From an uncultured Bacilli bacterium (GTDB taxonomy: Bacteria; Bacillota_I; Bacilli_A; RF39; UBA660), in contig CAKOXO010000004.1 of the NCBI GenBank assembly GCA_934130165.1, positions 51,415-115,414 of the forward strand: a stretch of DNA of 64,000 bases, written 5' to 3'. The stretch's first letter is position 1. The number at the start of each line of letters is the position of its first letter. Positions 10,430 through 48,850 of this stretch are shown piece after piece. The notes beneath the pieces were generated by a model. It was given only the letters and a program-made list of their open reading frames with translations, was not told the DNA's origin and made no database searches. Made by a program: the position numbers and the translations under genes.

Positions 10430-11002
10430 TCAATTATCACTATTTAACTTAGTACTATTAATACAAAAATCAATATATTCTTTAGCACTCAAATGAGGTT
10501 TTGGTTTATCAATTTCTCTTATTTCAAAGTAAGAAAGTTCATCATCTTTTATATTTTGCTTTTTTAATTCTTTGTAATTCTCATCGTATTCAAACTTTAA
10601 TAGTTCCCCTAAAGTATCAAATTCATGGATTCCTCTAAGTTCTTCCCATGCATGCTCAAAAAAGCACCATTTATCACCCTTTTTATACACTAAAAATGAA
10701 TGTGCAGAATAATTATTTACATAAGGCAAATTAACCATATGATAAAAAACTTTAATTTCATAATTATTATTAATAAACCATTCTCTTTCAAATTCAGTTT
10801 GATCAAAGCAATTACCTACTCCCGTTTTTAAAATATCTTCAGTAGTAGATAGAATATATTTATCATACCAACAATCATTAAAATTAGTGGTATCTATTTT
10901 ATATATTATTCCATCATTTCCAAGATAACCATAACTAATATTTGTATTCATAAATTTTAATAACTCACCTGGTGTTTTTATATCTTTATATTCCATTTTC
11001 AT
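10430..11002 (-). CDS. cytoplasmic Cys/His protein, possible NlpC/P60-like papain-fold enzyme, paralog B
   Basis: 'MEYKDIKTPGELLKFM', 'VGNCFDQTEFEREWF' and 'HSFLVYKKGDKWCFFEHAWEELRGIH' align with paralog A. Its start overlaps the upstream stop (ATGA). Confidence 0.4.
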   Translation of the reverse strand: MKMEYKDIKTPGELLKFMNTNISYGYLGNDGIIYKIDTTNFNDCWYDKYILSTTEDILKTGVGNCFDQTEFEREWFINNNYEIKVFYHMVNLPYVNNYSAHSFLVYKKGDKWCFFEHAWEELRGIHEFDTLGELLKFEYDENYKELKKQNIKDDELSYFEIREIDKPKPHLSAKEYIDFCINSTKLNSDN

Positions 11003-12744
11003 AATTTTCTCCTACTTTCACTTTCTACTTCTTTATCAAGGGATTCGTAAAACATATATATAATTATTGGAAAAGCTGTAAAAAATGGATATACATACCT
11101 AAGAATTGCTACAGGTGCTAGGATATCAGTACACAAATATAATAGTAATAATAGTAATGGTAAGAATAATTTATAGTTTTTCTTATACAATGTAAAAACT
11201 AAAACAAAAATAAATATCAATACATAAAATGACATATTCATTATTACATTTAAAATAATATTGTTCTGATATTTTGCATCCCTAACTAGTTTATAATAAT
11301 TTTTATATAAATTACTTTTATTACTACAGTTATCGCTTCTAGAAAATGTATTATTGCTTGTATCTAGACAGTTTATTTCAATATATGTTTTCGCATTTTT
11401 ATCTGGCAATTTGTCATTTAAATAGAAAAAACTATATACATTATTTACTATTGAATCAATAAATGTATTAGGATATTTCTTAAGTAAATTAAAATATAGC
11501 TTTAAATACTTAGATTTATCATTTAATAACTCCTCTGTATTAAACTCACTTTTTATGGGATCAGAAATATGAGAATTATACTTTTCTAAGGCATTATTTT
11601 TATATAAACTTTCAATACTTTTTCTTTCTTCTTTGGTTAATTTTTCTTTATTGTATACCCTTCCAAATTGCTGAACTACAAAACTAAACATTTCTATTCT
11701 TGGACCATCTTCTATTTTTAAAACATTGCTTAAAAATAAGTTATATGATTCAAATATAAATATAATAGATGAGAAAACAATAATTAACTTTTTATAATAT
11801 TTTTTTAATACTACTAATACAAATGGTATAAATAATAAAAATGCATAAAACATATTATTTCTAAATGATAATAGTAAAAAACACATAATAATAAATACTA
11901 CTATATTTTTCTTATTATTTAAAAAAATTTCTGTATCTGTAGATAATTCTATTGTCTTAATTAACACTAGGTTAAATAATCCTGAAAATATAATATCCTT
12001 AGTTGTTGTAATTGCTAATACACTATGTGTAGGTAAAAACATATATAATAATAAAAATATTAAATTATATTTTTTAGGAAATTTTTTCTTGTTTAAATAA
12101 ATTAAGGTATATGAGAATATTAAAGTCATAATAATAATTTGAGATATACTATGAATTAATAATCCTATATTGTATGAAGAAAACAGTTTGTTTCCAGTAA
12201 ATATTGTTACGTATAGGAAAAAGGTATGTATAACAGGATGATATTTTGTAACTAGATTAAACTTTAACATCCTAAGTTGGGTACCAGCATCATATGAGAA
12301 ATTACCAGGATAAAAAGCTATTAATATCGGCAAATAAGAAAGAATCATTAATAACATCAATACTAGTAAGCTATACTTTTTTTCAAATAAAAATTCATAA
12401 AATTTATTACTATTAATATCTTCTTTTTTTACTATATTATATAGCTTCCAAGTAACAATAAAGATAGTAGGGGCCAATATTAAAATAGATATATATGTCA
12501 TAATTTTATTTAGTGCTGCTGTATCATTTAAATAACAATTATATCCTACTACTTGTGTCGATGAAAAAATAAGTGAAAATAAGAAACAAAAAATCATTTT
12601 TCTTCTATCATGATTATACAATTTATAAATATAAAAATATTCTCCAATTATTAATACTATTTCCAGTAATAAATTATTAAATATTTTAAAGACTATTACT
12701 GATAAAATAGTAGTTATAAATAATAATATTTTTTTGATATTCAT
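10999..12744 (-). CDS. polytopic membrane protein; uncharacterised family, possibly GT-C-like
   Basis: About 12 transmembrane helices, a ~170-aa soluble insert ('GPRIEMFSFVVQQFGRVYNKEKLTKEERKSIESLY'), then C-terminal transmembrane helices. It is homologous to the gene at 36732-38219 ('KKNIVVFIIMCFLLLSFRNN' ~ 'KNKVLFIIMCFFMVYIRHNG'). The start was moved to ATG 12742-12744, because the track start is a GTG. Confidence 0.5.
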   Translation of the reverse strand: MNIKKILLFITTILSVIVFKIFNNLLLEIVLIIGEYFYIYKLYNHDRRKMIFCFLFSLIFSSTQVVGYNCYLNDTAALNKIMTYISILILAPTIFIVTWKLYNIVKKEDINSNKFYEFLFEKKYSLLVLMLLMILSYLPILIAFYPGNFSYDAGTQLRMLKFNLVTKYHPVIHTFFLYVTIFTGNKLFSSYNIGLLIHSISQIIIMTLIFSYTLIYLNKKKFPKKYNLIFLLLYMFLPTHSVLAITTTKDIIFSGLFNLVLIKTIELSTDTEIFLNNKKNIVVFIIMCFLLLSFRNNMFYAFLLFIPFVLVVLKKYYKKLIIVFSSIIFIFESYNLFLSNVLKIEDGPRIEMFSFVVQQFGRVYNKEKLTKEERKSIESLYKNNALEKYNSHISDPIKSEFNTEELLNDKSKYLKLYFNLLKKYPNTFIDSIVNNVYSFFYLNDKLPDKNAKTYIEINCLDTSNNTFSRSDNCSNKSNLYKNYYKLVRDAKYQNNIILNVIMNMSFYVLIFIFVLVFTLYKKNYKLFLPLLLLLLYLCTDILAPVAILRYVYPFFTAFPIIIYMFYESLDKEVESESRRKL

Positions 12745-12774
12745 AAAATGCACCTACTTTTCTACAAATGTAAC

Positions 12775-13780
12775 TTATCCATTTTCTTCTAATAATAAAT
12801 CAAAGTCTGATTTATATAATTTATCCTGCCTTATTCTGTACTTTTCAAATTCAGTTAATGCTTTATCACAAGCAATTTCATGAGATATTTTTCCGGCATC
12901 TTTTAATATATCTCTATTATCAAGTAATAAATATTTATCTATTAAATTAACCCAATCTTCCATTGTCATTGGAATATGTCTTCTAGCTCTGTTTTCCGCT
13001 AATTCTAAGAAAGCACTTACAATTTTCTCTAAATCTTTTATTTCATCTTTTGATAAATAATTTTTAGCTATTAGAACATCAGATTCCATTATTTTACCAT
13101 TAGGAAAATTTTTCCAAGTAGTAATCCGAATTAGCTCTATTATATATAATTTCAGCAGCAGTCTGATTAGATACCGCGAAATTCATTTTATTCTGCACTT
13201 TTTTAAAAAAATTAATTGATATTGGAGACTTTTGATCATAATCTATGCTTGTTGCATAAATATCAGTAATTTTTTGGTAAAATCTTCTTTCTGATAATCT
13301 TATTTCTCTAATTTCTTCTAATAATTTTTCAAAGTAATCTTTATCAATGAATGAACCATTTTTCATTCTTTCTTTGTCTAATACATATCCTTGAATAGTA
13401 AATGTTTTCAGTACATTTGTTGCCCATCTTCTAAATTGTGTAGCTTTTAATGAATTCACTCTATAACCAACTGATATTATTGCATCTAAATTGTAAAATT
13501 CAATATTTCTTTTAACATTTCTATTTCCCTCTTTTTGAACTAATTCCATTTTGGAATAAGTTGAACTTTTATCTAATTCATTTTCATTATATATATTTAT
13601 AAGATGCTTTGCTATTGCAGGCTGTTCAACATCAAATAATTCTGCCATAGCTTTTTGTGTCATCCATAAAGTCTCGTTTTCATACCTAACTTGAATACCT
13701 TTATCTTTTTCTTGAAGTTTAAATGTAATAAACTCTTCCGCGCTACTTCTTATAACCAAATCTTTTGCCATCTCTATCAT
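12775..13780 (-). pseudogene. rhuM: RhuM-family (virulence/defence-island) gene disrupted by a frameshift
   Basis: ORF 13100-13780 carries the RhuM N-terminal and middle region ('LWMTQKAMAELF', 'FRRWATNVL'). ORF 12775-13089 carries the C-terminal part ('SDVLIAKNYLSKDEIKDLEKIVSAFLELAENRARRHIPMTMEDW'). Hand translation of the other frame upstream of 13089 gives 'ITTWKNFPNGKI', continuous with it. The frames switch inside 'TATATATA' at ~13131-13140. Confidence 0.7.
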
Positions 13781-13887
13781 CTCCTTCTAAATAATTTAAT
13801 TAACTACTTCATAATAAACGTATAACTATTAAGAATGTTTATTATGGATATATAATCTTCTTATAAAGCAATTAGCATAAATTTATA

Positions 13888-14484
13888 TTATATATTTATT
13901 ATTTTATAAAAAATTTCTTTTATATTTTCGCCTGTTACTTGATAAGCGTTAATGCCAAGTTGTTTTGCTCCATTTACATTCTTTTGATTATCATCAAAAA
14001 ATATTATATTATCTGCTTCACAATTAAGTGCATCAATCACTTGTAAATAAATATCGCTAGAGGGTTTTATACATTTAATTTCATATGATAAAAATAAGTA
14101 ATCAAAATTTATTTTTTTAATTTGTTCTTCATATCTTTTGTAATCCATTAGCCTAAGATTAGATAATAGTCCAACTTTATATCCTTTATTTTTTAATTCA
14201 TTTATAATTTCCATAGTTTCATCATATAAAGAATTATCTAAACTATTATATATTTCATAAAATTGATTAATTGATAAATCACTTTTACAAAACTTTAATA
14301 ATGCTTCAACATGTTCGTCATCTGTGGCAAGCCCCATATGAGCTTTTAATACTAAATCATCACCCCACCAATATTGTAAAAATTCATCATATGAAATTTT
14401 ACAATTTAATTTATTATACAAACCATAATCATCTAAAGATTTTGCTAAAACATTTCCAAGATCAAATAAAAATATTCTATCCAT
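13888..14484 (-). CDS. HAD-superfamily hydrolase (subfamily IA-like phosphatase)
   Basis: N-terminal 'FLFDLGNVL' is the DxG nucleophile motif. 'GLLSN' is motif II and 'FFDDNQKNVNGAKQLGI' is motif IV. Confidence 0.75.
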   Translation of the reverse strand: MDRIFLFDLGNVLAKSLDDYGLYNKLNCKISYDEFLQYWWGDDLVLKAHMGLATDDEHVEALLKFCKSDLSINQFYEIYNSLDNSLYDETMEIINELKNKGYKVGLLSNLRLMDYKRYEEQIKKINFDYLFLSYEIKCIKPSSDIYLQVIDALNCEADNIIFFDDNQKNVNGAKQLGINAYQVTGENIKEIFYKIINI

Positions 14485-14486
14485 AA

Positions 14487-15044
14487 TTATACCTCAATAT
14501 TGCTTTCTATATATTTATAAATATCATTATATGTTTCATATCTATCTAATGAAGTATCAAAATAACAAATATTATTTAAAATACATTCATTATAAAGATT
14601 TATACTATTATTAATCGTTTCTTTTGAAATAGATAAAAGATCTTCCTCACTGTATCCATAAGTCCAATCAAGATTAATATCATGTTCTAATATTTTATTT
14701 TTCAATTCTTCAGCAGAAATTTCTTTACATCCAATACCAATTATTAAAGAATTTTTAAATATTTCTTTAGCATTTTTAATTAAAATATCAGCTGAATCAA
14801 TAACATAATAAATATTTCTTTTTAAATGTATATTGTTTTCATTAATTATAAAGTTTATAAATTTACAAAAATCTTTATTCTCAATTGTATTTTCTACTTT
14901 ATATCCAAGTTCAGGATATATATTAATGAAAGCATTTCTAATGCTATCACCACTCATATAATTAAAATTATATTTTGCACACAATATAGATGCTAATGTA
15001 GATTTTCCAACTCTAGATGATCCAATTATTATTATATTTTTCAT
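14487..15044 (-). CDS. small P-loop kinase-like NTPase, paralog 2
   Basis: 'IIIGSSRVGKSTLA' is a Walker A motif and 'SGDSIRN' fits a kinase-type acceptor region. 185 aa. Its start overlaps the upstream stop (ATGA). Confidence 0.5.
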   Translation of the reverse strand: MKNIIIIGSSRVGKSTLASILCAKYNFNYMSGDSIRNAFINIYPELGYKVENTIENKDFCKFINFIINENNIHLKRNIYYVIDSADILIKNAKEIFKNSLIIGIGCKEISAEELKNKILEHDINLDWTYGYSEEDLLSISKETINNSINLYNECILNNICYFDTSLDRYETYNDIYKYIESNIEV

Positions 15045-15604
15045 ATATTCTCCTTTATTTCATTTAGCAATTCATTAAAAATACTTTCTCTGTTATAAGA
15101 TGTATCAATATATTTCATATTATATTTTTTACATTGTTCTATTATTTGATTTTCAAATTCTTTTGCTTTTTTTATATGATTTAATAAATTTTCATTTGTT
15201 CTTTTTGAAGTCCATTGATTTTCATCATCATAATATCTACAATTATTAAATATTTCCTCAACAGTCAAACTAGAATTCACAAAATAATAAACTATAGTAT
15301 TTGATAAATCAAAATAATTAATTAAATCCACTGGCATTATTGAATCTGAATTAATTATATAACTATATTCATTTCCTAATCTACTTTTATTTTTTTGAAG
15401 TAATATATTGATAAATTGAGATAATTTATTATCTTTCAAATAATCATGAGTAAAACCAATCTGAATATCATCAAAAGTGCTTTGTAATGCCGAAATAATA
15501 GCATCAACTTCTATAATTTGATAATTTTCTAGTTCTTTTTGTAATAATTTAGAAAATGTAGTTTTACCTGTTCTACAAGTTCCAAGTATCATTATATTTT
15601 TCAT
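15041..15604 (-). CDS. small P-loop kinase-like NTPase, paralog 1
   Basis: 'IMILGTCRTGKTTFS' is a Walker A motif. The start was moved to 'MKNIMILG' (ATG 15602-15604, AGAAGGA ribosome-binding site). It is a paralog of the downstream gene. Confidence 0.5.
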   Translation of the reverse strand: MKNIMILGTCRTGKTTFSKLLQKELENYQIIEVDAIISALQSTFDDIQIGFTHDYLKDNKLSQFINILLQKNKSRLGNEYSYIINSDSIMPVDLINYFDLSNTIVYYFVNSSLTVEEIFNNCRYYDDENQWTSKRTNENLLNHIKKAKEFENQIIEQCKKYNMKYIDTSYNRESIFNELLNEIKENI

Positions 15605-15816
15605 ATTTTTCCTTCTTTCAAAACATGCTTTCATAATTTATATTTATTATTAACTCTACAACACATACAATCTTATATAGTATGAGAAAACATATTCTCC
15701 ACAAACAACCTCCACAATATTTTTTCAAAAAACAATAAAAATATCAATTTTTTATCGTTTTTTCACCATTTTTTGGTCCCTACTGAATAGTTGATTTTTT
15801 CTTTATTTATAAGGGT

Positions 15817-23145: not shown

Positions 23146-23670
23146 TCATGCTTGTAATATAAAATCTTTTATTATTTCAAATACTTGGTTTTTATCAATA
23201 CTTAAATTACAAGAAAGTATTAATTTATTATTTCCCATAACTATTTCATTACTAGGATTTAAAAATATAAGTTTATTAGTATCAATATCATTCATCTTTA
23301 TTAGAACTTTTTCTAATATGTTACTACTACTTCCATAACTCATAAAGTATACATTTTTCTTATCTATATCATAGTTATCTATTTCTTTGTAAATATATTT
23401 TATAAATTTATAACATTTTGAAACATAATCATTTTTAGAGTAATCTAGTAAAAAAACAACGCTTTTTGTATTTATTGCTAAATCACTACAAATACTCTCA
23501 TCTGTAGATATTAAAATAATTAGTCTATCAAGATTTACTTCCTTTTTAGGATAAAATACTTTAATTGGCAATAAATTGTTTTTTAATAATATCTTATAAT
23601 TTGAAATATTTTCTCTAGAAATGCTTGGATGAAATATCTCATTTAAACTTCTATATAATTTTGTTTGCAT
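23146..23670 (-). CDS. hypothetical protein
   Basis: An ORF of 174 aa with no recognisable motif. Confidence 0.35.
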   Translation of the reverse strand: MQTKLYRSLNEIFHPSISRENISNYKILLKNNLLPIKVFYPKKEVNLDRLIILISTDESICSDLAINTKSVVFLLDYSKNDYVSKCYKFIKYIYKEIDNYDIDKKNVYFMSYGSSSNILEKVLIKMNDIDTNKLIFLNPSNEIVMGNNKLILSCNLSIDKNQVFEIIKDFILQA

Positions 23671-23748: not shown

Positions 23749-25128
23749 TTAATCCTTAAAAAATGAGAATAAACCTTTCTTTCGGATTAATGTAGGAATA
23801 TTTGGATTATTAGTTATTGAATTTATAATGGTATTTGACAAATTATAAGTATTTCCATACTTTAATGAATATTTTGCTTTACCATATCTTTTATCAATCA
23901 TAACAACTGGTACTTCCAAAGAATAATCTAACTTCACTTTTTTATCTACACCAACAATATAATCATCTTTATAAACTCCATAAAGAGATGAGATAAACAT
24001 ATTATATCCATTTTGATCACAAATATTGTAAATATTATCAATTTTTTCATCAATAATCATCAAAAATTCCCTGATTTGTTTAATTTCTTTAAAGTCAGCT
24101 ATATCATAATCAAATACAATTAATTGTTCAGTTGATGATAAAACTTCTTCATAATTTATATTATCATCTAAATTTCGATATTCTATGTTATTGCTCTTTA
24201 TGTCTTTTAAACCGTTAAGATTATAATTAATGGATTGAATTCTATCAGGTTTAGTATATATTACACACTTCAAATGAGCTTCTTCTAGTTTTTTATTAAA
24301 GAAATCCAAAGGTTCTATTTCTTCATATATATTAATAGCATAAGGAAATGATTTCATAGGAAATAATGTATATAATTTTACATTTCTAATTTTTTTAATA
24401 AAATCATCACAGTCAACATCTTCATAATTTAAAAATAACGCAATATCATTGGGTTGAAGTTTGAAACCTGGTTGAAGATAAAATGGATCTATATTCTTAG
24501 GAATAATTCCCATGGTTCTAGAATAATTTATTTTTCTGGCATAATCAGGCCATTTTTCTCCGCTTTCTTTACAAAATAAATTATAATAATCATCTTTATT
24601 AATAGTTCTTTCACCAGTAACCATTCCTATTTCTACATTTTTATAAAGAGTTATTTTTTCCTCTATTGCTTGTAACATTTTTAAAATATTATCATACTCT
24701 ATCACATCTTTTTGTCTTAAAATAGGATGAATAAATATTTTAAACTCTCCTCTTGATTTTAGAACATTAATTATCTTAATTACCTGATTAATTACTTGAT
24801 CATTATCTAAAAAGCAAAATAGATGCACCTTTGTATTATTAGTAATAGCATCATTTGCTATTTTAATTATTGTAGTATTATTAGTTAAATTATTATCTGA
24901 TTCAAGGCGATGATAAGTTGGCAATAAATCATTACCTAAGCTAAAATTTCTATACCCATTTTTGTAATTATAATTTATATTTTCCAAATTAGAGTACAGA
25001 TAATTTCCCATAAGCATTGATAAATTAGGCATCGTATCATTAAACTTTATATCAAATGAATCTTTAGAGGCAACTCCTAAACCATTTATTAAAAATAAAA
25101 CAGTTTTAGTAATATCATTGTTCATCAT
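23749..25128 (-). CDS. 2,3-bisphosphoglycerate-independent phosphoglycerate mutase (iPGM)-like protein with degenerate active-site motifs
   Basis: From recalled iPGM sequence, these blocks are collinear with iPGM: 'TVLFLINGLG' ~ 'PVALIILDGFG', 'HLFCFLDNDQVINQ' ~ 'HLFGLLSDGGVHSH', 'IFIHPILRQKDV' ~ 'VYIHGFLDGRDV', and 'VEIGMVTGER' ~ 'IATLSGRYY'. The Mn ligands (Asp, His) and the Ser nucleophile region are substituted. Confidence 0.5.
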   Translation of the reverse strand: MMNNDITKTVLFLINGLGVASKDSFDIKFNDTMPNLSMLMGNYLYSNLENINYNYKNGYRNFSLGNDLLPTYHRLESDNNLTNNTTIIKIANDAITNNTKVHLFCFLDNDQVINQVIKIINVLKSRGEFKIFIHPILRQKDVIEYDNILKMLQAIEEKITLYKNVEIGMVTGERTINKDDYYNLFCKESGEKWPDYARKINYSRTMGIIPKNIDPFYLQPGFKLQPNDIALFLNYEDVDCDDFIKKIRNVKLYTLFPMKSFPYAINIYEEIEPLDFFNKKLEEAHLKCVIYTKPDRIQSINYNLNGLKDIKSNNIEYRNLDDNINYEEVLSSTEQLIVFDYDIADFKEIKQIREFLMIIDEKIDNIYNICDQNGYNMFISSLYGVYKDDYIVGVDKKVKLDYSLEVPVVMIDKRYGKAKYSLKYGNTYNLSNTIINSITNNPNIPTLIRKKGLFSFFKD

Positions 25129-25187
25129 TCCATCTCCTACTCTAATATTATTATATCACATAACTAAAAAAAAACACCATACAGTGT

Positions 25188-27047: not shown

Positions 27048-27971
27048 ATGAAAAATAAATTAATGCAGGTTTTAATATTTGTCATATTCTTGTCACTAAT
27101 ATTAAAACCAGATTTAATAACATCAGAAATACTTAATGCCTTAAATGTGTTTTCTAATACCCTATTTCCATCAATATTTCCATTCTTTTTAATCTCTGAT
27201 TTATTAATCAGTTATAATTTTTGTAATACTCTAAATAAGTATTTTTCTAAAATTAACAATTTTTTATTTCATACTTCAAATGCCTCTAACTTTGTAATAA
27301 TAATGAGTATTTTTTCTGGATTTCCAAGTGGAGCAAAGTATATAAGAACTCTCTATGATAAAAAAATGCTTAGTATTAATCAAGCAAATTATTTAATAGT
27401 TTTTACTCATTTTGCTAATCCATTATTTGTCTTAACTATTACAAAAAAACTATTTCATAATTCTAGTATTTCTTATCTAATACTATTTTGTCACATTATT
27501 TCTAATATAATAATAGCAATCATAATTAGACCAAAGGAAAAAGAAGTTCATATAGAATTAAACAATGAAAATAACGAATCATTCTCTACTAATTTATCTA
27601 ATTCAATCAAATCTTCTTTGAAACTTTTATTATTAATACTTGGAAATACTTGTTTTTTCTTTATAGTTACAAGACTAATTAATGAGTATTTTTCCTTAAG
27701 TGGTATTTACCAAGTATTTATTAATGGTTTTTTTGATATGACAAAAGGAATCAATAGTATTTCCTTAATACATTCGACTATAATATTTAAAGCAATTTTA
27801 ACTTTAACATTCATATCTTTTGGTGGAATAAATGTACATATGCAAGTTTTGAATATAATTGATGGTACTGATATCAAATATAAAAACTTTTTACTTGGAA
27901 GAATATCACAACTGGCAATATCTTCCGTATTATTCTTTATTTTCTATAATTTTAGTACCAGTCTTTATTAA
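27048..27971 (+). CDS. ylbJ: sporulation integral membrane protein YlbJ (nucleoside-recognition/Gate domain)
   Basis: Polytopic, with 'FSGFPSGAKYIRTLYDKKMLSINQANYLIVFTHFANP'. It is divergent from ylbL as in Bacillus. Confidence 0.6.
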   Translation: MKNKLMQVLIFVIFLSLILKPDLITSEILNALNVFSNTLFPSIFPFFLISDLLISYNFCNTLNKYFSKINNFLFHTSNASNFVIIMSIFSGFPSGAKYIRTLYDKKMLSINQANYLIVFTHFANPLFVLTITKKLFHNSSISYLILFCHIISNIIIAIIIRPKEKEVHIELNNENNESFSTNLSNSIKSSLKLLLLILGNTCFFFIVTRLINEYFSLSGIYQVFINGFFDMTKGINSISLIHSTIIFKAILTLTFISFGGINVHMQVLNIIDGTDIKYKNFLLGRISQLAISSVLFFIFYNFSTSLY

Positions 27972-28548
27972 TTGGGATTACTATATCTAACGCAGAATAT
28001 TTATTTCCTAAATCATTATGCCTAAAACCTACATATATTTTTAGGTAATCATTTTTATTTGTGATTTGAATATCATTAAAACGTAGGGTGTAAATATCTG
28101 GAATTTCAAATTTATCATCTATCACATTATCTTTATAAAACACAATATAATTATTTTTATGACAATCAATTATTCCGGAATCATCCTCTGATTCTATATC
28201 TTTAGTATCATCACTATTTTCATCGCATTTACTTAATTGATAAATTTCTAATTTTCTTGTTTTACCAGTATTTAACGTATAATTGATTATATATTTAGTA
28301 CCATTACCATTTATTCGATCTTCATGAGTAGCCTTTTTTACACCACCGCCGTCTATAATATCTTCTTCTATGGTTTTGGTAGTTTCGTTTTTATATGTTA
28401 ACATCGAATTTTTTGTTGATTCAATTTCTTGTTTTGATTTTTGATTATTTACTACCTTAAACATAGACATTACTATAACAACAACAATTGAAAAACAGAC
28501 CAATATTTCTACTACTGTCAATCCTTTATTATTTAATCTTTTCATCAC
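27952..28548 (-). CDS. prepilin-type (class III signal) pseudopilin / minor pilin
   Basis: 'MMKRLNNKGLTVVEILVCFSIVVVIV' has the G/F-T-x-x-E cleavage and methylation motif before the hydrophobic helix. Confidence 0.65.
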   Translation of the reverse strand: MMKRLNNKGLTVVEILVCFSIVVVIVMSMFKVVNNQKSKQEIESTKNSMLTYKNETTKTIEEDIIDGGGVKKATHEDRINGNGTKYIINYTLNTGKTRKLEIYQLSKCDENSDDTKDIESEDDSGIIDCHKNNYIVFYKDNVIDDKFEIPDIYTLRFNDIQITNKNDYLKIYVGFRHNDLGNKYSALDIVIPINKDWY

Positions 28549-29069
28549 TTGATATCAACTCCCAAAGTAGCATATTCATATACGCTTTCAGTGTTTTCAG
28601 TTCCCTCTTTTATGTCTTTTTTGTATTTTGCAATTATACGATAATTATAACCATATTTATTAATTTCATAGTTTGGTAAATATTTGATGTATTCTTTTAA
28701 TCCTGAATCAAGAGAAGTAGAATCAATATTCTTCTTTAGGTCTGTTATTTTATAATTTGTAATATAGACTTCTGGATCTCCTAAACTAGTCATTAAGTTC
28801 CTGCATTCACCAGTAAAACTTCCAGCCTCAGTACAGTTTAATTTTTTTGGATTAACATTAACCTGTAACACACCTTGATTATTACTTAGAAATCTTTTAA
28901 TTAAATCAGTCTTATATACACTATCAATATTATCATACCCTTCTCTTTTTTCATATTCACCTATTAATGGATAAAAATTTGTATATAATAAAGTAAATAT
29001 TCCCATAACAAAAACAGATACAATTAATGTTTCTACAAGGGCAAAGCCTTTAGAGTTCAATTTCTTCAT
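28545..29069 (-). CDS. prepilin-type pseudopilin / minor pilin
   Basis: 'MKKLNSKGFALVETLIVSVFVMGIF'. Its stop overlaps the start of the downstream pilin gene. Confidence 0.7.
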   Translation of the reverse strand: MKKLNSKGFALVETLIVSVFVMGIFTLLYTNFYPLIGEYEKREGYDNIDSVYKTDLIKRFLSNNQGVLQVNVNPKKLNCTEAGSFTGECRNLMTSLGDPEVYITNYKITDLKKNIDSTSLDSGLKEYIKYLPNYEINKYGYNYRIIAKYKKDIKEGTENTESVYEYATLGVDIK

Positions 29070-29163
29070 TTTTTAGTATTCACTCCTTGCTATTATGATA
29101 AAACTATTATATAATATAATAAGATAAAATACCATAGAAAGTAGACAAAAAGGGGTTGAAAAT

Positions 29164-30996
29164 ATGGTTACATTTGATTATAAAAAAACTCCAATAACGC
29201 AAATTGCAGATTATATTATTATGTATGCTGCAAAAAGTGGCGCTAGTGATATCCATTTTGACCCAAAAGAAAACGGTCTGATGGTACGAATAAGAATCGA
29301 TGGAGACCTACAAGATTATACTTTAATACCTCCAGATTACGAAAGAAATTTAACTACAAGATTAAAATTACTAGCTAATATGAACATCACAGAAAGCAGA
29401 CTTCCTCAAGATGGAGCAATCAAAAGACAATTCGGAAAACTTTACCTAGATATGCGTGCATCTTCTCTTCCTACTAATGAAGGGGAAAAAATAGTTATTC
29501 GTATCTTAGATTATAGTAGAAGCTTACAAGGATTAGAGCATCTTGGTTTTTCGCATACTAATTTTGAAAAATTAAAAAGAATGATTCAAATACCAAATGG
29601 TATCATTTTGGTTACTGGTGCTACTGGTACAGGTAAAAGTACTACTACCTATTCTATTTTACAAGCTTTAAATAAACCTGAAACTAATATTATTACGGTT
29701 GAAGACCCAATAGAAATGAATATTGAAGGAATAAATCAAGTACAAGTAAATAGTGAAATTGGTTTAGACTTTGCTACAGTATTAAGATCTATTTTAAGAC
29801 AGGATCCAAATATTATCCTTATTGGAGAAATTCGTGATTCTGAAACAGCTAAAATTGCAGTACGTGCATCAATAACTGGGCACTTGGTATTATCAACAAT
29901 ACATACAAACAATTCTTTATCTACAATTGAGCGTCTTTTAGATATGGATGTTGAAAGATATCTTTTATCTAGCGCTTTAACTGGAATAATTTCACAACGA
30001 CTTGCCAAGATGTTATGTCCTAAATGTAAAATAGAAAGAGAAGCCACTCCTTATGAGAAAAAAATATTTAAAAATGTTTTAAAAGAAGATATTGAAAAGC
30101 TTTATGACGCTAACCATGATGGTTGTGATTACTGTCATAATGGCTACAAAGGTCGAATTGCTGTTCAAGAGGTTTTAGAGATTGATGATGAAATAAGGGA
30201 TGCCTTAAATGATGAAAAATTAGAAAAAGAAGACTTAAGAGAGATGGTATACACATCTAATGTTATTACCCTACTTCAAGATGGGTTAGAAAAAGTACTA
30301 GAGGGAATAACTAGTTTTGAAGAAATTTACAGGATTATTGAAATAGATTCTGATATTACTGAAAATTATGGTGCTGAGTTAACTGAAGCTAATAAGGAAA
30401 GATTAAAACAAGAAAAGCAAAATAAAATAAAAGAAGAAATCAATTCAGAAGTTACTGATTCTGCTAAATCAATTAACTCTGATGATAAAACTTCATCAGT
30501 AGATGATACTGCAACAATATCAACTAATAGTCAAAATGTAGAATCCATTATTAATAAAAATGAGGAAAAGGCAAATATTATTATCACTCCTCCTATGATT
30601 CCAGCATATACAGATCAAGTTAATTATAGTAATCCATCTAACCCTGAACAAATTTCAGATACAAACTCTTCGACCATTAATATTCCTAATGTCCAAAATA
30701 ATTTTTACAATACTAATAATTCAGAAACTAACCAAGATTTAAATTCTACTGATAAAAACATCAATAGTAATAATGAGAGTGAAAAAATCAATTTTTCACC
30801 ATTAAATACGAATGAGACCTCTGCTTCCGGCCCAACCCTAAGCCTACTAACAGAAGTTCCACAAAATTATAATCAAATTGATAATTCAAACCAAGTTAAT
30901 CTTCAACCAACAATCAGCACTATAAATGATGTAGCTAGTCCAACTCTGATTGAAAATCAAGCAAATTCAGAACCAACATTAATAGAAAATAATTAA
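29164..30996 (+). CDS. type IV pilus / competence ATPase (GspE/PilB family, short ComGA-like form) with a ~230-aa N/S/T/Q-rich C-terminal extension
   Basis: Walker A 'VTGATGTGKSTT', Asp/His boxes, and a tetracysteine 'CPKC...CDYCH'. The ATPase core ends near residue 380 and the remainder is low-complexity. Confidence 0.8.
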   Translation: MVTFDYKKTPITQIADYIIMYAAKSGASDIHFDPKENGLMVRIRIDGDLQDYTLIPPDYERNLTTRLKLLANMNITESRLPQDGAIKRQFGKLYLDMRASSLPTNEGEKIVIRILDYSRSLQGLEHLGFSHTNFEKLKRMIQIPNGIILVTGATGTGKSTTTYSILQALNKPETNIITVEDPIEMNIEGINQVQVNSEIGLDFATVLRSILRQDPNIILIGEIRDSETAKIAVRASITGHLVLSTIHTNNSLSTIERLLDMDVERYLLSSALTGIISQRLAKMLCPKCKIEREATPYEKKIFKNVLKEDIEKLYDANHDGCDYCHNGYKGRIAVQEVLEIDDEIRDALNDEKLEKEDLREMVYTSNVITLLQDGLEKVLEGITSFEEIYRIIEIDSDITENYGAELTEANKERLKQEKQNKIKEEINSEVTDSAKSINSDDKTSSVDDTATISTNSQNVESIINKNEEKANIIITPPMIPAYTDQVNYSNPSNPEQISDTNSSTINIPNVQNNFYNTNNSETNQDLNSTDKNINSNNESEKINFSPLNTNETSASGPTLSLLTEVPQNYNQIDNSNQVNLQPTISTINDVASPTLIENQANSEPTLIENN

Positions 30997-33001: not shown

Positions 33002-34089
33002 ACTTCTTTACTCCTTACAAAATTAATTAATATCTCATTACTTACATATATTTTATCTTCTGGTATATAAATATTTTCATTATTACATATCAAATTATTT
33101 GATACTAAGCTATCGATAGGATAAATATTTTCAATTTTTTCTCCATATTTATTTTCAAAATATTTTTTATTTACTCCTTTTAACAACCTCAAGCCTAATA
33201 TCATTTCATAATCCATTATATCAGATTTTGATAAATTATCATATTCCAAAATATAATTTCCCCTCATATATTTTTTTATACTTCTAGTATTTGTTATTCT
33301 CCTACTACCTATATATGATGATGCACCTAGTCCAAAACCGTAATAGTTTTTATTTTTCCAATAACAAAGATTATGTTTTGATTCATATCCTTTTTTAGAA
33401 AAATTGCTTATTTCATAGTGTTCATAATCTTTTAGTTTATTAATTATTAATTTATACATTTCATAATCTAAATCTTCATCAATGTAATCAGTTTTATTTA
33501 TAGCTAGTTTAGTATGAGGTTCAATTATAAGTGAATATGTTGATATATGCTCTGGTTTTAGTGATAAAACAAAGTCTATATCATTTGATAAATCGTCCAA
33601 GGTTTCATTTGGGATTGCGTACATTAAATCTATATTGATATTATCAAAATCCAAATTCCTACATAAGTCAATTATATATTTAACTCTTTTTTTACTTTCT
33701 TTCCTACCTAATAATGTTAAATTATTTTTATTAACTGTTTCTAGGCCAAAACTTATTCTATTAACTCCATTTTCCTTAAATAATTTCAATTTTTCTAAGG
33801 TTATACTATCAAAGTTACATTCTATTGTATATTCAATTTTTTCATTTTTCTTAAAAATGTTTAAAATATTAAATAGTTTTTTTAATTGCTCTAAAGTTAG
33901 TGATGATGGAGTTCCACCACCAATATATATTGTATCTAACTTTTCATTGTTATAAGTAGATAGTATTTCTTTTTCTAAACTAACTAGGTATTTATCAGTC
34001 AAATTTTCATTGTAAAAAAGTTTACAAAAGTCACAATATGAACAGATATTATTACAAAATGGTATATGAATATAGCAATTATTTGCCAT
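32998..34089 (-). CDS. hemW: radical SAM heme chaperone HemW (HemN-like, oxygen-independent coproporphyrinogen oxidase family)
   Basis: 'CNNICSYCDFC' is the CxxxCxxC motif. 363 aa. It sits downstream of lepA as in Bacillus. Confidence 0.8.
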   Translation of the reverse strand: MANNCYIHIPFCNNICSYCDFCKLFYNENLTDKYLVSLEKEILSTYNNEKLDTIYIGGGTPSSLTLEQLKKLFNILNIFKKNEKIEYTIECNFDSITLEKLKLFKENGVNRISFGLETVNKNNLTLLGRKESKKRVKYIIDLCRNLDFDNINIDLMYAIPNETLDDLSNDIDFVLSLKPEHISTYSLIIEPHTKLAINKTDYIDEDLDYEMYKLIINKLKDYEHYEISNFSKKGYESKHNLCYWKNKNYYGFGLGASSYIGSRRITNTRSIKKYMRGNYILEYDNLSKSDIMDYEMILGLRLLKGVNKKYFENKYGEKIENIYPIDSLVSNNLICNNENIYIPEDKIYVSNEILINFVRSKEV

Positions 34090-34732
34090 GGGGTTTAAAA
34101 CTATTCTCCTTTAGTGGTTGCAATCTAGATTCATTTAATATTTCTTTTGCTATTTTACATTTTTCTTTGTCTATTTTTGAAAGTCTAGTAGTTAAATTTC
34201 TTTGAACTACATTCCAACTCAAGCCTTGTACATTTCCTATTTCTTCTATTGTATTACCTACTGATAAATAATTATAAGATGTAAGAACCTGTTCTATTAC
34301 TCTTTTGTTATTAGTTGAAAACGATTTATTTTCCATTAAGACATCAAACACTGCCTTATAATGTTTTATTGAAATATTAGGTAATCGTTTCTGAATATAA
34401 TCATGAATCGTTGTTTTACCAATTCCAAAGACTTTCGCTGTTTCTCTTACTGAACTTTTATTTTCTATAATATAATTTGCGATATCGATATAAAGTTCAT
34501 TATCTTTGGTTACAAGTGGCAAATTATCATCTAATGTATCGTAATATTTTTTAATATTATCTCTATGTTCAGAAACCTTACTATTTAATTTATTATCTAG
34601 TGTACAATAATTATCTAGTACTTCTACTACTTTATTTTTATCTATACATAAGTACTCAGCTAACTCATCATAAGTAAACCAATTATTTAAATATTCTTCA
34701 ATTATGCATTCTTTAGTAATATAATCTTCCAT
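34079..34732 (-). CDS. DNA-binding protein with tandem SpoIIID-like helix-turn-helix repeats
   Basis: Residues ~80-150 'NYIIENKSSVRETAKVFGIGKTTIHDYIQKRLPNISIKHYKAVFDVLMENKSF' match recalled SpoIIID 'KYIVETKKTVRVIAKEFGVSKSTVHKDLTERLPEINPDLANEVKEILDYHKSI'. A second similar unit is 'LSVGNTIEEIGNVQGLSWNVVQRNLTTRLSKIDKEKCKIAKEILNE'. The ~75-aa N-terminal region looks like another helix-turn-helix. Confidence 0.55.
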   Translation of the reverse strand: MEDYITKECIIEEYLNNWFTYDELAEYLCIDKNKVVEVLDNYCTLDNKLNSKVSEHRDNIKKYYDTLDDNLPLVTKDNELYIDIANYIIENKSSVRETAKVFGIGKTTIHDYIQKRLPNISIKHYKAVFDVLMENKSFSTNNKRVIEQVLTSYNYLSVGNTIEEIGNVQGLSWNVVQRNLTTRLSKIDKEKCKIAKEILNESRLQPLKENSFKPHGK

Positions 34733-36731: not shown

Positions 36732-38219
36732 TTAATCTTTTTTTATTTGGTTATTATATAATGCATAAACAATTAATGGATAAGTGCAAGTTATAGAAGG
36801 ATAGGCAAAACGCATTTCATCGCCAGTTACAAGGCAGGATACTATGATTACATTAGATATTACTAATATGTAAGGTATAAATCTTCTTATACCATCAATA
36901 CCCTTTCTTATAATTAAATATATTGAAAATAATATTAAGAAAAGAGCACTTCCTAAATCTATAAATAAAAATTTTAATGGAGTTTTAAAAATAAAATTTG
37001 TATAATAGTAAACCCCATTATTATTTTCTCTTGAATTATACTGAAAACAATAAAAACTTTTATAATGGTCTATTCTCCAATATATACTAGTAATTGCCAA
37101 ATAGTTTTTTAAAGATAATTTAGGATTTTTTACCGCTAAATCTAGCCATATTCTTACTACATCTAATGAGATACTTTTTAACTTTTTTAAATTATCTGGG
37201 CAGTTAAACTTTATTTCATTAAAATACATATATTTACTATAATTTCCATTAAAACACTCTTTTTTAAAGATACTATATATTTTATCTTGATATTCTTTTT
37301 TAAATCCCTTTCCATGTTCTTCTATATATCTAATTTGATTCAATGGAACTCCTAACATTTCAGCTGTACCAATATTAGGTTTTACATTTAAAAAATTATA
37401 TATAGGGCCGGTAATTATTACTCTAGCTGTTATAAATATAATAAAAAATGATACATAGAATTTCCTATATTTTTTATAAAAAATAATGAGTAATATCATC
37501 ATTAATAAAAAATTAGCAATACCATTATGTCTTATATATACCATAAAAAAGCACATAATAATAAATAATACTTTATTTTTAGTTTTAGAAATCCAATCAC
37601 CTTTAGTTATCACAATTTCAATTAAAAACATAGTTCCTACTAAAATAGTATAAGAAAACGGCACATCTTTTAATAGGCTTGACGTCATAACAAGAAAACT
37701 AGGATTTAAAACTATAAGTAACAGTATAATTATAGTCATACCTATATTTAGAAAGTATTTTCTTAAAAAATAACTTAAATAAATTAAACATACATATATA
37801 TATAATCCTTGAAATATTTTGCAAGAATAAAAACTATAATAAAAAATGGATGGCAATTTAACAAAGATAATTGTATATAAAAATGGATGCCAGTCACTAT
37901 AAATTCCTCTAGCTAAAACATTCCATATACCAGTAAAATCTGTAGGATAGCAATTATTATTTGCTATTGAAAAAACAATGGCAATAACTATTATATATGT
38001 GTATATTGCAAACTCTATTAATCTTATTTTTTTACTAGATTTAAATTTTATTTTATCAAGAAACTTTTGTATAAATAAAAATAAAATAAAAATTATAATT
38101 GTCCATGGAATAAATGAAAAATATCTAATTTCTCTATCATAACTAATACAAAATACAAAATATATAGCTAATAGAAGAAGTAATATATTGTTTAAATTAA
38201 ATATTTTTTTTAGTTTCAT
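36732..38219 (-). CDS. polytopic membrane protein, paralog of the gene at 10999-12744
   Basis: About 12 transmembrane helices. Shared blocks are 'LLKDVPFSYTIL', 'KNKVLFIIMCFFMVYIRHNG' and 'FYKKYRKF'. It is inserted between the yqxA-like gene and lepA. Confidence 0.5.
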   Translation of the reverse strand: MKLKKIFNLNNILLLLLAIYFVFCISYDREIRYFSFIPWTIIIFILFLFIQKFLDKIKFKSSKKIRLIEFAIYTYIIVIAIVFSIANNNCYPTDFTGIWNVLARGIYSDWHPFLYTIIFVKLPSIFYYSFYSCKIFQGLYIYVCLIYLSYFLRKYFLNIGMTIIILLLIVLNPSFLVMTSSLLKDVPFSYTILVGTMFLIEIVITKGDWISKTKNKVLFIIMCFFMVYIRHNGIANFLLMMILLIIFYKKYRKFYVSFFIIFITARVIITGPIYNFLNVKPNIGTAEMLGVPLNQIRYIEEHGKGFKKEYQDKIYSIFKKECFNGNYSKYMYFNEIKFNCPDNLKKLKSISLDVVRIWLDLAVKNPKLSLKNYLAITSIYWRIDHYKSFYCFQYNSRENNNGVYYYTNFIFKTPLKFLFIDLGSALFLILFSIYLIIRKGIDGIRRFIPYILVISNVIIVSCLVTGDEMRFAYPSITCTYPLIVYALYNNQIKKD

Positions 38220-46988: not shown

Positions 46989-48278
46989 ATGAAAGAAAAA
47001 TTTATACTATCAACTATTATACTTTTAATTGGTGGATTTCTTACAAAAATTTTAGGAATGATTATAAAAATAGTTATGACTAGATTAATGGGAAGTGAAG
47101 GAATCGGATTATATATGCTTATTCTTCCCACTTTTTCACTATTTATTTCCTTAGCACAAGCTGGATTTCCTATTGCTATATCAAAACTAGTCGCAGAAGA
47201 TAATAAAAATAATAAAAAACTTATCTTCTCTCTAATCCCATTATCATTAATAATTAATGTTTTCTTAATGATAATTATTATAATTATTGCACCATATCTT
47301 TCTACAAATTTACTCCATGATAAAAGATGTTTATATGGAATACTCGCTATAAGTTTAGTTATTCCTCTTACTACATTATCAAGTATATGTAGGAGTTATT
47401 TTTTCGGTAAGGAAAAAATGTTACCCCATGTTATCAGTAATTTATGTGAGGATATTGTAAGACTAATTCTTATTATAATAGGCATTCCATTAATATTAAA
47501 AAAGGGAATTGAATATGCAGTATGCTATGTAATACTTACCAATATTGTTAGTGAATTAACCTCAATATTAATTCTTTTCTTCTTTATACCTAAAAATGCA
47601 AAAATTCATAAATTTGATCTAAAACCAAGTAAAATGTATATAAAGGATTCATTAAATATATCAATACCTAATACAGCAGGAAGATTAATTGGTTCTATAG
47701 GATATTTCCTAGAGCCTATAATACTAACCTCATCTCTTTTATATGTTGGATATTCAAACAGTTTTATAGTTAATGAATATGGTATAATTTCTGGATATGT
47801 ACTACCAATTCTATTACTTCCTTCTTTTTTTACTATGGCCATATCCCAAGCATTACTTCCAGTAGTATCAAATCTATATGTAAGAAAAGATATTAAGGGA
47901 GTAAAAAGAAAAATTAAACAAGGATTATTTTTTTCACTATTAATTGGTAGTGCTGCTACTGTTATACTAATGCTATATCCGGATTTATTATTAAAGTTAG
48001 TTTATAACACAACAAAAGGAGCCAACTATGTTAGATTCCTTGCTCCTTTTTGTCTTCTTCAATATATTCAAGCACCACTTTCTTCCGCATTAGATGCAAT
48101 AGGACAAAGTAAAGATAATATGAAAGCTGTGCTTTATGGTACAATCATTAGAACCAGTTTATTATTTTTATTATCGCTGTTAAAGATTGGTATATGGTCT
48201 TTATTAATTTCAACTAGTATAAATATTATAGTTGTAACTCTATACAATTCTTATAAAATTAAAGTTAAACTAAATTAA
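46989..48278 (+). CDS. spoVB: stage V sporulation protein B-like MOP-superfamily flippase
   Basis: 'MKEKFILSTIILLIGGFLTKILGMIIKIVMTRLMGSEGIGLYMLILPTF...PIAISKLVAE' matches the recalled SpoVB N-terminus. The start is set at ATG 46989. The track start at 46728 overlaps the opposite gene, and an alternative ATG lies at 46929. Confidence 0.65.
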   Translation: MKEKFILSTIILLIGGFLTKILGMIIKIVMTRLMGSEGIGLYMLILPTFSLFISLAQAGFPIAISKLVAEDNKNNKKLIFSLIPLSLIINVFLMIIIIIIAPYLSTNLLHDKRCLYGILAISLVIPLTTLSSICRSYFFGKEKMLPHVISNLCEDIVRLILIIIGIPLILKKGIEYAVCYVILTNIVSELTSILILFFFIPKNAKIHKFDLKPSKMYIKDSLNISIPNTAGRLIGSIGYFLEPIILTSSLLYVGYSNSFIVNEYGIISGYVLPILLLPSFFTMAISQALLPVVSNLYVRKDIKGVKRKIKQGLFFSLLIGSAATVILMLYPDLLLKLVYNTTKGANYVRFLAPFCLLQYIQAPLSSALDAIGQSKDNMKAVLYGTIIRTSLLFLLSLLKIGIWSLLISTSINIIVVTLYNSYKIKVKLN

Positions 48279-48850
48279 TAACCTGTAGACGATGTTGATG
48301 AGGCAGGTATTTTACTTTTTGCAGCTTCATAAGTGTTCACAGCATTTTTACTATTTTCCCAAAAATATTTGATGGAGCTGGGGATTGTAGAAATTTCACT
48401 TGTTACTACCTTTTGAGTAGCTTTATCACCATAAAGTTCTTCTCTTGAAATTTCTCCTACTCCTCCTACTGTGGAACCGTTTTTCACCTCGACTAATTGT
48501 ACTTTATATTCTAAACTTCCATTATTATTTTTAACAATAACATATGACTTAGTTTTATCATACTCTCCCCCATTTGGAGGTTCGCTCAATTCATTTGACT
48601 TATCTAAAAATGGTAGTAGAAAACAATAACTATTTCCATTTGCAGGTTTTAAGTCAGTTGGATTAGATCTAACTTTATAAGCCGCTAAAGTTTCTAATTT
48701 TTTTGCATCTTCTATATAAGTTTTATTCTTGTTTCTTTGAACTATACCAATTACATTGGGAATAGCAATTAACATTAATGTAGCTAAAATTGCCATTGTT
48801 GCTAATAATTCAACTAAAGTAAAACCTTTTTCATTATTAATCATCTTCAT
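48275..48850 (-). CDS. type IV major pilin / ComGC-like prepilin
   Basis: 'MKMINNEKGFTLVELLATMAILATLMLIAIPNV' is a class III signal with Glu at +5. 191 aa. Confidence 0.8.
   Translation of the reverse strand: MKMINNEKGFTLVELLATMAILATLMLIAIPNVIGIVQRNKNKTYIEDAKKLETLAAYKVRSNPTDLKPANGNSYCFLLPFLDKSNELSEPPNGGEYDKTKSYVIVKNNNGSLEYKVQLVEVKNGSTVGGVGEISREELYGDKATQKVVTSEISTIPSSIKYFWENSKNAVNTYEAAKSKIPASSTSSTGY

Follow-up and report, generated by a model that had tools for sequence, protein, structure and literature searches.

The DNA analysed here, a stretch of 64,000 nucleotides from an uncultured member of the Bacilli (hereafter the window), carries on its minus strand a gene whose product, judging from profile alignments and a structural model, is a full-length homologue of the cofactor-independent phosphoglycerate mutase (iPGM, encoded by gpmI), from which, however, every catalytic residue of that enzyme has been lost. 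The protein is referred to below as pseudo-iPGM. The window is chromosomal, its content of guanine and cytosine (GC) being 22–31% (24% is cited for the genome), and encodes housekeeping functions (murG-murB-ftsQ-ftsA-ftsZ, dnaG-sigA, recD2 and lepA) as well as the sporulation proteins GerA, Gpr, SpoIIP and a SpoIIID-like one, the host being a spore-forming member of the Bacilli. This agrees with the initial annotation, made from the sequence alone, as does the open reading frame (ORF) with respect to its borders and length. It should be noted that a second ATG, at position 25125, may be the true start, yielding a protein of 458 residues, because MNNDITK opens the sequences of close relatives. 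The gene and the parts of its product are as follows:

23749..25128, minus strand: the whole pseudo-iPGM ORF, 459 amino acids plus stop, with an ATG start
24904..25128, minus strand: residues 1–75, N-terminal part of the alkaline-phosphatase-type core, with strand beta1 plus LFLINGLG, and with YNYKNGY
24319..24903, minus strand: residues ~76–270 (approximate), inserted iPGM_N or 'transferase' domain, placed by the Pfam and PDB profile matches and by alignments
23794..24318, minus strand: residues ~271–445, C-terminal part of the core domain, ISSLYG replacing TADHGN and LDYS replacing (T)AHT
23749..23793, minus strand: residues 446–459 plus stop, extension past the canonical iPGM end, IPTLIRKKGLFSFFKD, a putative membrane-binding tail

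At the level of sequence, the similarity to iPGM is weak yet significant. The Pfam domain iPGM_N (PF06415) is matched by residues 78–235 with an E-value of 1.4e-6 and a score of 28.4 bits against a cut-off of 27, no match to the Metalloenzyme domain (PF01676) appears even at E ≤ 10, and the score against TIGR01307 is 34.2 bits, the equivalog cut-off being 330.65; none of the curated models searched (Pfam, TIGR01307) covers the protein as a family of its own. A profile of 18 family members finds the iPGM chains of S. aureus and B. stearothermophilus in the Protein Data Bank (PDB) with E-values from 3e-6 to 9e-6, the match spanning residues 70–318, and hhalign places the family profile on E. coli GpmM in a single collinear alignment (query 6–438, target 5–497; E = 9e-5). 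The gene was also matched, with E = 1e-6, in a tblastn search with the canonical GpmI of a related low-GC organism. It is the structural match that settles the homology: with the AlphaFold2 (AF2) model (mean predicted local distance difference test, pLDDT, 82.7; predicted template modelling score, pTM, 0.75) as a query, the top 22 Foldseek matches in the PDB are all iPGM, aligned over the whole chain with E-values from 8e-24 to 2e-20, the next-best hit being a sulfatase with E = 2e-3. According to this model, the complete two-domain iPGM fold is kept, and the full-length collinearity proposed in the initial annotation is borne out by both hhalign and Foldseek.

Pseudo-iPGM has the α/β core fold of the alkaline phosphatase superfamily, found in alkaline phosphatase itself, sulfatases, NPP, LtaS and DeoB, and among the known systems its best structural match is by far GpmI/iPGM (TIGR01307; PF01676 plus PF06415; PDB 1EJJ, 4MY4 and 5KGL), with which it shares, collinearly over the full length, the same core and the inserted iPGM_N domain. 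It differs from GpmI/iPGM in lacking the nucleophile, the Mn ligands and most of the substrate residues, in a shorter loop before the nucleophile segment—10 residues being deleted just before YNYKNGY—and in the extra tail or, in related proteins described below, transmembrane (TM) helix; its inserted domain carries a family-specific motif, G-E191-x-W193...K199. The phosphopentomutase DeoB, the sulfatases, NPP, LtaS and EptA/MCR-1 are devoid of the iPGM_N insertion topology and work with a metal site and a Ser, Thr or formylglycine nucleophile, both of which are missing from pseudo-iPGM.

Concerning catalysis, 19 positions were tabulated from a MAFFT alignment of four groups: the canonical enzymes, iPGM-like proteins that are degenerate only in part, the sister clade described below and the clade of the window protein. 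These positions comprise the phosphoserine nucleophile (Ser62), the six ligands of the two Mn sites (Asp12, Asp444 and His445, together with Ser62, in one; Asp403, His407 and His462 in the other), the residues contacting phosphoglycerate (His123, Arg153, Asp154, Arg185, Arg191, Arg261, Arg264 and Lys336) and three additional histidines that are conserved. Residues and numbering follow the structures of the B. stearothermophilus enzyme, a choice with which the conservation among the canonical sequences is in accord. In five of the eight canonical sequences, including two encoded near sister-clade genes, all 19 positions are intact; P0139 and P0141 depart at one or two auxiliary positions, and P0146, grouped with the canonical ones, exhibits six departures, among them Ser62 to Cys and His407 to Asn. 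The equivalents in pseudo-iPGM, for which hhalign gave the same mapping, are:

Asp12 (Mn ligand): Asn15
Ser62 (nucleophile): Tyr55
His66: Tyr59
His123: deleted or Ile
Arg153: Lys140
Asp154: Asp141
Arg185: Glu173
Arg191: deleted
Arg261: Glu236
Arg264: Asp239
Lys336: Arg296
Asp403 and His407 (DMVGH loop): a shortened, variable loop
Asp444: Leu382
His445: Tyr383
His462: Asp401 (Asp, Asn or Ile across the family)

Throughout both the window family and the sister clade, replacement has affected the nucleophile, each of the six Mn ligands and almost every substrate-binding position; of the 19 key positions, only the equivalent of His147 is kept in the family. Of the 71 family sequences, all have Asn15 and either Tyr or Phe at position 383, 65 have Leu382, and Tyr55 is found in 63, with Leu in another 7; the Ser62 position in the sister clade is occupied by Phe, Tyr or Arg. 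The equivalents of Arg153, Asp154, Arg185, Arg261 and Lys336 vary across the same 71 sequences, and the AMDRDxRW and NFRxDR motifs of iPGM are destroyed. The residues shared with canonical iPGM are His102, His134, Asp228, Asn234, Gly306, Asp360, Gly384 and Pro407, the first four of which look structural because they are conserved in the canonical enzymes as well.

The catalytic degeneration claimed in the initial annotation thus extends across the family, and the five positions it had singled out for inspection (the equivalents of Ser62, Asp12, Asp444, His445 and His462) read Tyr55, Asn15, Leu382, Tyr383 and Asp401. Three of its motif pairs stand, i.e. ILDG to INGL (Asp12 to Asn15), DGGVHSH to DNDQVINQ and HGFLDGRD to HPILRQKD; the fourth was out of register, the equivalent of GNSEVGH being YNYKNGY (residues 53–59) and not GNYLYSN (41–47), with the nucleophilic serine absent in either register. 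Its fold and descent place the protein in the iPGM branch of the alkaline phosphatase superfamily. It has none of the attributes of a functional GpmI, failing to reach the equivalog score or to match the Metalloenzyme domain and lacking the residues that serve as nucleophile, bind the metal or contact the substrate. The replacement of the nucleophile, both Mn sites and the Arg/His/Lys cluster binding phosphoglycerate argues that pseudo-iPGM is unable to interconvert 3-phosphoglycerate and 2-phosphoglycerate by the iPGM mechanism. Tyr55 was considered as a new nucleophile and rejected, since Leu or Phe takes its place in part of the family as well as in the sister clade.

Four iPGM-like proteins of 488–530 residues, P0131, P0143, P0156 and the P0146 mentioned above, are only partly degenerate. 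All of them retain Asp12, Arg185, Asp403 and His445 and differ in their other losses, such as Ser62 to Asn, Glu or Cys, Asp444 to Ser or Thr, and Arg261/264 to Ser or Glu; they may be independent or intermediate pseudo-iPGMs.

As for the extent of the family, a word-indexed search returned 57 relatives of pseudo-iPGM, and an exhaustive search with a hidden Markov model across 1.84 billion cluster representatives (clusters at 50% identity) gave 347 matches with E < 1e-3, 54 of them with E < 1e-30. In a scan of one genome per GTDB species, an intact gene was found in 70 genomes, all metagenome-assembled, with the identity ranging from 73% down to 24%; they are labelled as uncultured Bacilli, Tenericutes, Erysipelotrichaceae or Mycoplasmatota, with rabbit, mouse, ruminant, chicken and human gut among their sources. 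The family is, as far as the databases show, confined to uncultured, fast-evolving low-GC gut Bacilli, the exact window protein recurs in independent metagenomes, and the sources checked give no protein name for any member. One 540-residue protein, P0054 (JGI), joins an N-terminal half of acetate kinase (PF00871) to the C-terminal ~270 residues of the family, starting from 'GGKWPDY'; it reflects either the fusion of two genes or a chimeric assembly. Several members (the L012:7535-8890 region, P0101, P0018, P0021 and P0047) possess, ahead of KTxLFLxNG, low-complexity N-terminal extensions of 50–150 residues rich in Glu/Lys/Asn or Gln/Pro/Met, these being either real or due to over-extension of the start codon.

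The gene is under strong purifying selection, the ratio of nonsynonymous to synonymous substitution rates (dN/dS, Nei-Gojobori) being 0.049 in the comparison with a relative of 97% identity and 0.062 with one of 87%, and it is therefore a gene for a pseudoenzyme and not a decaying one; enzyme homology with the catalytic residues lost, together with purifying selection and retention across species, is what characterizes a pseudoenzyme. Across the 71 sequences 14 residues are invariant, the new polar ones including N15, E191 and K199, along with W193. The three 12-residue windows of lowest entropy, 8–19 (the lowest), 378–389 (the second) and 54–65, coincide with the iPGM segments that carry Asp12, Asp444/His445 and Ser62, respectively, which suggests that constraint on the former catalytic centre was not relaxed and that a different, fixed set of residues has taken over there.

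The exhaustive search with the family profile also recovered a sister clade of proteins of ~517–543 residues, scored at 140–180 bits by the window-family profile, canonical iPGMs reaching at most 85 bits. The sister-clade profile, in turn, scores the window-clade proteins at 196–245 bits, so that by these reciprocal scores the two clades are each other's closest relatives and form a monophyletic pair. The sister proteins are equally degenerate, with NGFG, (T/S)SLYG and no Ser62. In five of the six sister-clade loci a canonical gpmI (499–507 codons, with all catalytic residues intact) is located 3–4 genes upstream, being absent at L079; it should be pointed out that L072-L075 represent one arrangement taken from NCBI, JGI, ENA and Logan records, not demonstrated to be independent assemblies, and that L080 is a second species. 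The degenerate protein there is therefore a paralogue, and with the canonical copy only a few genes away, a tandem duplication of gpmI would be the most economical origin of pseudo-iPGM. Paralogues of iPGM are rare in bacteria (Foster et al., PMC2964296).

Neither a canonical gpmI nor a gpmA was found in the 64-kb window or within ~10 kb of the gene at the 70 related loci, where tblastn searches using GpmM, GpmA and Eno of E. coli as well as the canonical GpmI of a relative returned only the family gene itself and one enolase. The latter (L029:5-1774) is encoded immediately after the 3' end of a murD-like gene in a family-bearing genome, outside the gap-pgk-tpi-gpmI-eno operon usual in Firmicutes. 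Two further observations concern the sister-clade region. A conserved, unannotated ORF of 146–163 residues lies immediately upstream of the sister-clade gene (L072:7443-7910, L079:7487-7978, L080:5777-6217), coming after an EngB-type GTPase and a multi-pass membrane protein of 182–194 residues. A pair consisting of a histidine kinase and a phosphotransferase system (PTS) EIIB-like protein occurs there, too. In L013 and L028 it is also seen at a distance of ~7 kb from the gene of the window clade, and it may be a remnant of shared synteny.

The most conspicuous addition to the iPGM architecture is the C-terminal tail. In the window protein, clustered basic residues precede a short run of hydrophobic ones (RKKG-LFSFF-KD), the net charge being +3, and a similar tail terminates the protein at 69 of the 70 loci, L005 being masked by N/X. 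Examples from the window clade are RKKGLFSFFKD, KKKDFLTRLLFKK, EKKNGLYKLFFK and KGLLTSLLFK, the window-clade tails keeping the RKK(G) cluster with 5–8 hydrophobic residues. This element aligns, past the canonical C-terminus, with the RKKG...TM region of the sister clade, in which all 65 full-length proteins have a C-terminal TM segment and none has a hydrophobic segment at the N-terminus. The 12 residues preceding the sister-clade TM segment contain on average 4.6 Lys/Arg, those following it 0.3, a pattern that marks tail-anchored proteins whose main part lies in the cytoplasm. One member of the window clade, L068, has a full TM helix; the window-clade proteins otherwise lack it (maximum hydropathy over 19 residues ~1), and the window protein itself contains no hydrophobic segment of 19 residues (maximum Kyte–Doolittle value, KD, 0.98). 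The presence of the sister-clade TM segment at the position of the tail suggests that these proteins are tethered to the membrane on its cytoplasmic side, the short tail of the window clade being a putative peripheral membrane-binding element.

Cytoplasmic proteins with tails of the MinD/FtsA type, and tail-anchored proteins, likewise end in a cluster of basic residues and, after it, a short stretch that is hydrophobic or amphipathic, and RKKGLFSFFKD resembles the MinD tails. The MinD/FtsA tails share, however, no sequence homology with the tail of pseudo-iPGM, whose amphipathicity lacks statistical support.

Upstream of the gene, the following signals were recognized, in this order from the hairpin to the ribosome-binding site:

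25166..25187, minus strand: a short hairpin (ACAC...GTGT) with a T9 run, terminator-like, directly after the stop of the upstream gene
25158-25150, minus strand: an extended −10 element, TGaTATAAT, read from the sequence, putative
25138-25134, minus strand: a ribosome-binding site, AGGAG, read from the sequence, putative

Elements of the form TGnTAnAAT or TTGACA-17-TAnAAT are found ahead of the gene in many relatives, irrespective of which gene lies upstream, and analogues of the hairpin with a T-run are also present upstream in many of them; the enrichment of the promoter elements is modest (27 of 69 family genes compared with 212 of 915 other ORFs, p = 0.005), and in the terminator scan the hairpin/T9 element falls under the threshold. 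Only sigma-A-like elements are present, no promoter for a sporulation sigma factor being recognizable upstream. The terminator-like hairpin after the upstream gene suggests that pseudo-iPGM is transcribed on its own, and the gene may be monocistronic and vegetatively expressed.

As far as the neighbourhood is concerned, the gene is preceded on its 5' side by an ORF for a membrane/thioredoxin-like protein and a YlbL-type Lon/PDZ protease, and followed on its 3' side by a 174-residue ORF, a DUF1003 protein, a DUF1307-like lipoprotein and a GDPD phosphodiesterase, in that order. This arrangement is kept only in the 15 closest loci, the neighbours elsewhere being unrelated housekeeping genes that vary by subclade (methionine aminopeptidase, RecD2, phosphoketolase, HrcA, an SDR, a DUF1538-like transporter and others), and no functional conclusion is therefore drawn from the gene context. 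The 174-residue ORF directly downstream (23146-23670, minus strand) is likewise kept only in the 15 closest loci, and its product matches nothing in Pfam and no sequence in the PDB; it may loosely resemble a truncated alpha/beta-hydrolase.

Based on the above results, pseudo-iPGM is probably a non-catalytic paralogue of iPGM, i.e. a pseudoenzyme, serving as a membrane-associated adaptor or sensor and having its own housekeeping-type promoter. Expressed from that promoter, the protein of the window clade would be held at the cytoplasmic face of the membrane by its short basic-hydrophobic C-terminal tail, its sister-clade counterpart by a true tail-anchor TM helix. The clamshell of the two domains, with its remodelled pocket (Asn15, Tyr55, Tyr59 and Ser381-Leu382-Tyr383-Gly384), would bind a ligand or a partner protein, so that the role would be that of an adaptor or sensor and not of an enzyme. 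Several results weigh against this. The hydrophobic-moment test of the tail did not discriminate (the median was 0.33, corresponding to the 65th percentile for the protein concerned, and shuffled tails reach this value 67% of the time), because of which the membrane argument rests on the positional equivalence of the tail to the sister-clade TM segment; the binding of the short tail is read from this positional match, and the confidence of the AF2 model is low over it. That the segments of the former active site are so well conserved could be due to nothing more than core packing and need not mean a binding pocket. The generic promoter scan of the region revealed no excess over shuffles, consensus matches being cheap in AT-rich DNA, and clustering of the neighbours across the 70 loci yielded no conserved operon partner, the neighbourhoods of the subclades being different. 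Coexistence with a canonical gpmI, finally, is seen in the sister clade only and not in the window clade, as far as the 64 kb and the ~10 kb around the gene at the 70 loci reach.

The lowest entropy falling on the former active site, together with the new invariant polar residues N15, E191 and K199 and the tryptophan W193, would also suit a new metal-independent enzyme built on the old scaffold, whose substrate might be a lipid of the membrane or some other phospho-compound, with the chemistry taking place in the remodelled pocket or through Glu191/Trp193/Lys199 and His102/His134/Asp228 of the inserted domain. Membrane tethering is typical of lipid-acting enzymes, and in the closest clade a gene for a GDPD glycerophosphodiesterase lies three genes downstream. 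We nevertheless consider such an enzyme unlikely, since Leu and Tyr/Phe sit at the metal-ligand positions, no conserved nucleophile is evident, Tyr55 giving way to Phe or Leu in part of the family as well as in the sister clade, the residues His102, His134, Asp228 and Asn234 look structural, being kept in canonical iPGM, too, and the linkage to GDPD holds only among close relatives. That the protein might instead be a highly divergent phosphoglycerate mutase, still functional through another set of catalytic residues and maybe the sole one in these reduced genomes, would accord with the failure to see a canonical gpmI or gpmA around the gene and with the L029 enolase adjoining murD and not standing in a gpmI-eno operon; the loci, however, cover such a small fraction of each genome that the absence of gpmI says little, the sister-clade genomes contain both the pseudo form and a canonical gpmI, and the metal ligands and the cationic substrate cluster are all gone, so that this is highly improbable.

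iPGM controls the 3-phosphoglycerate (3PGA) store in Bacillus, and the initial annotation had accordingly tied the gene to that store. A soluble 3PGA-binding regulator or buffer for the depot of the dormant spore would have the fold of the controlling enzyme itself, and the hosts in both clades are spore formers, with GerA, Gpr, SpoIIP, SpoIIID-like proteins and SpoIVA encoded nearby. The Arg/His/Lys residues that bind phosphoglycerate are, however, acidic (E173, E236, D239), variable (the equivalents of Arg153, Asp154, Arg185, Arg261 and Lys336) or deleted (Arg191), and canonical 3PGA binding is therefore implausible; the promoter looks sigma-A-like and the C-terminal anchor or tail argues against a soluble buffer. 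With nothing but the lifestyle of the host left to connect the protein to sporulation, the proposed link to the store is not supported, and a role of this kind is very improbable. The reading as a pseudogene in decay, or as an ORF that arose by chance because the DNA is rich in AT, for which the strong divergence and a Pfam match barely at the threshold could be invoked, is refuted by the selection and conservation data and has practically no probability left: the dN/dS values are 0.05–0.06, intact full-length ORFs with invariant residues are present in 70 species, the AF2 model is confident and the exact protein occurs in independent metagenomes.

The window contains several other features that deserve mention. 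A 217-residue protein (34079-34732, minus strand) shows matches to the SpoIIID domain in two stretches (PF12116, E = 3e-19), the SpoIIID of Bacillus being much shorter, with ~90 residues. In the region 27952-30996, two pilin-like ORFs (27952-28548 and 28545-29069) have prepilin-like hydrophobic N-termini and no Pfam match, and a 610-residue T2SSE-type ATPase is encoded divergently from them, its Pfam domain covering only residues 8–390 and leaving ~220 residues unexplained; a further N_methyl pilin is found at 48275-48850. In the region 13100-15634 (minus strand), a gene for a RhuM-family 'virulence protein' adjoins those of a HAD hydrolase and two small P-loop kinase-like proteins, and this region could be a small accessory island amid housekeeping DNA. 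Two paralogous DUF6020 membrane proteins are encoded 24 kb apart (10999-12753 and 36732-38219, both minus strand). The GC skew is negative all along the window (1-64000), most genes lying on the minus strand, and no tRNA genes and no Rfam families above the gathering score were detected across the 64 kb.

Returning to the non-catalytic, membrane-associated paralogue of iPGM favoured here, it is conceivable, if only tentatively, that it represents a new class of membrane-tethered sensor or adaptor, derived from a dead glycolytic enzyme. An Asn/Tyr/Leu/Tyr pocket in place of the metal centre would then take up, at the cytoplasmic membrane face, a new small molecule, the head group of a lipid or a partner protein, and the signal would be coupled to a housekeeping process of these reduced Bacilli. 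iPGM reportedly contacts glycolytic or RNA-processing proteins in Bacillus, and proteins of these kinds are a possible class of partners. PbgA/YejM of Enterobacteria is a membrane-bound protein of the alkaline phosphatase superfamily that is mainly regulatory, sensing lipopolysaccharide via LapB/FtsH-LpxC. It is only distantly related to pseudo-iPGM and differs from it by an N-terminal multi-pass anchor and a periplasmic domain, that is, by the opposite topology, as well as by phylum and ligand; it has been reported as a metalloenzyme (PMC7576196), its catalytic status being disputed. A sensor or adaptor of the present kind would parallel the use that PbgA/YejM makes of the superfamily domain, with opposite topology and independent origin.

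No description of a non-catalytic iPGM was found in the literature searched. In practical terms, the family is an annotation trap, since the weak iPGM_N match in these metagenome-assembled genomes could be miscounted as a phosphoglycerate mutase; one JGI fragment is already labelled as such. The importance of the finding is moderate, no long-standing question being opened by it. What the two clades offer is a coherent family of pseudoenzymes under purifying selection, with a putative added membrane anchor and a remodelled and constrained former active site, and thereby a clean natural example of a central metabolic enzyme repurposed after duplication.

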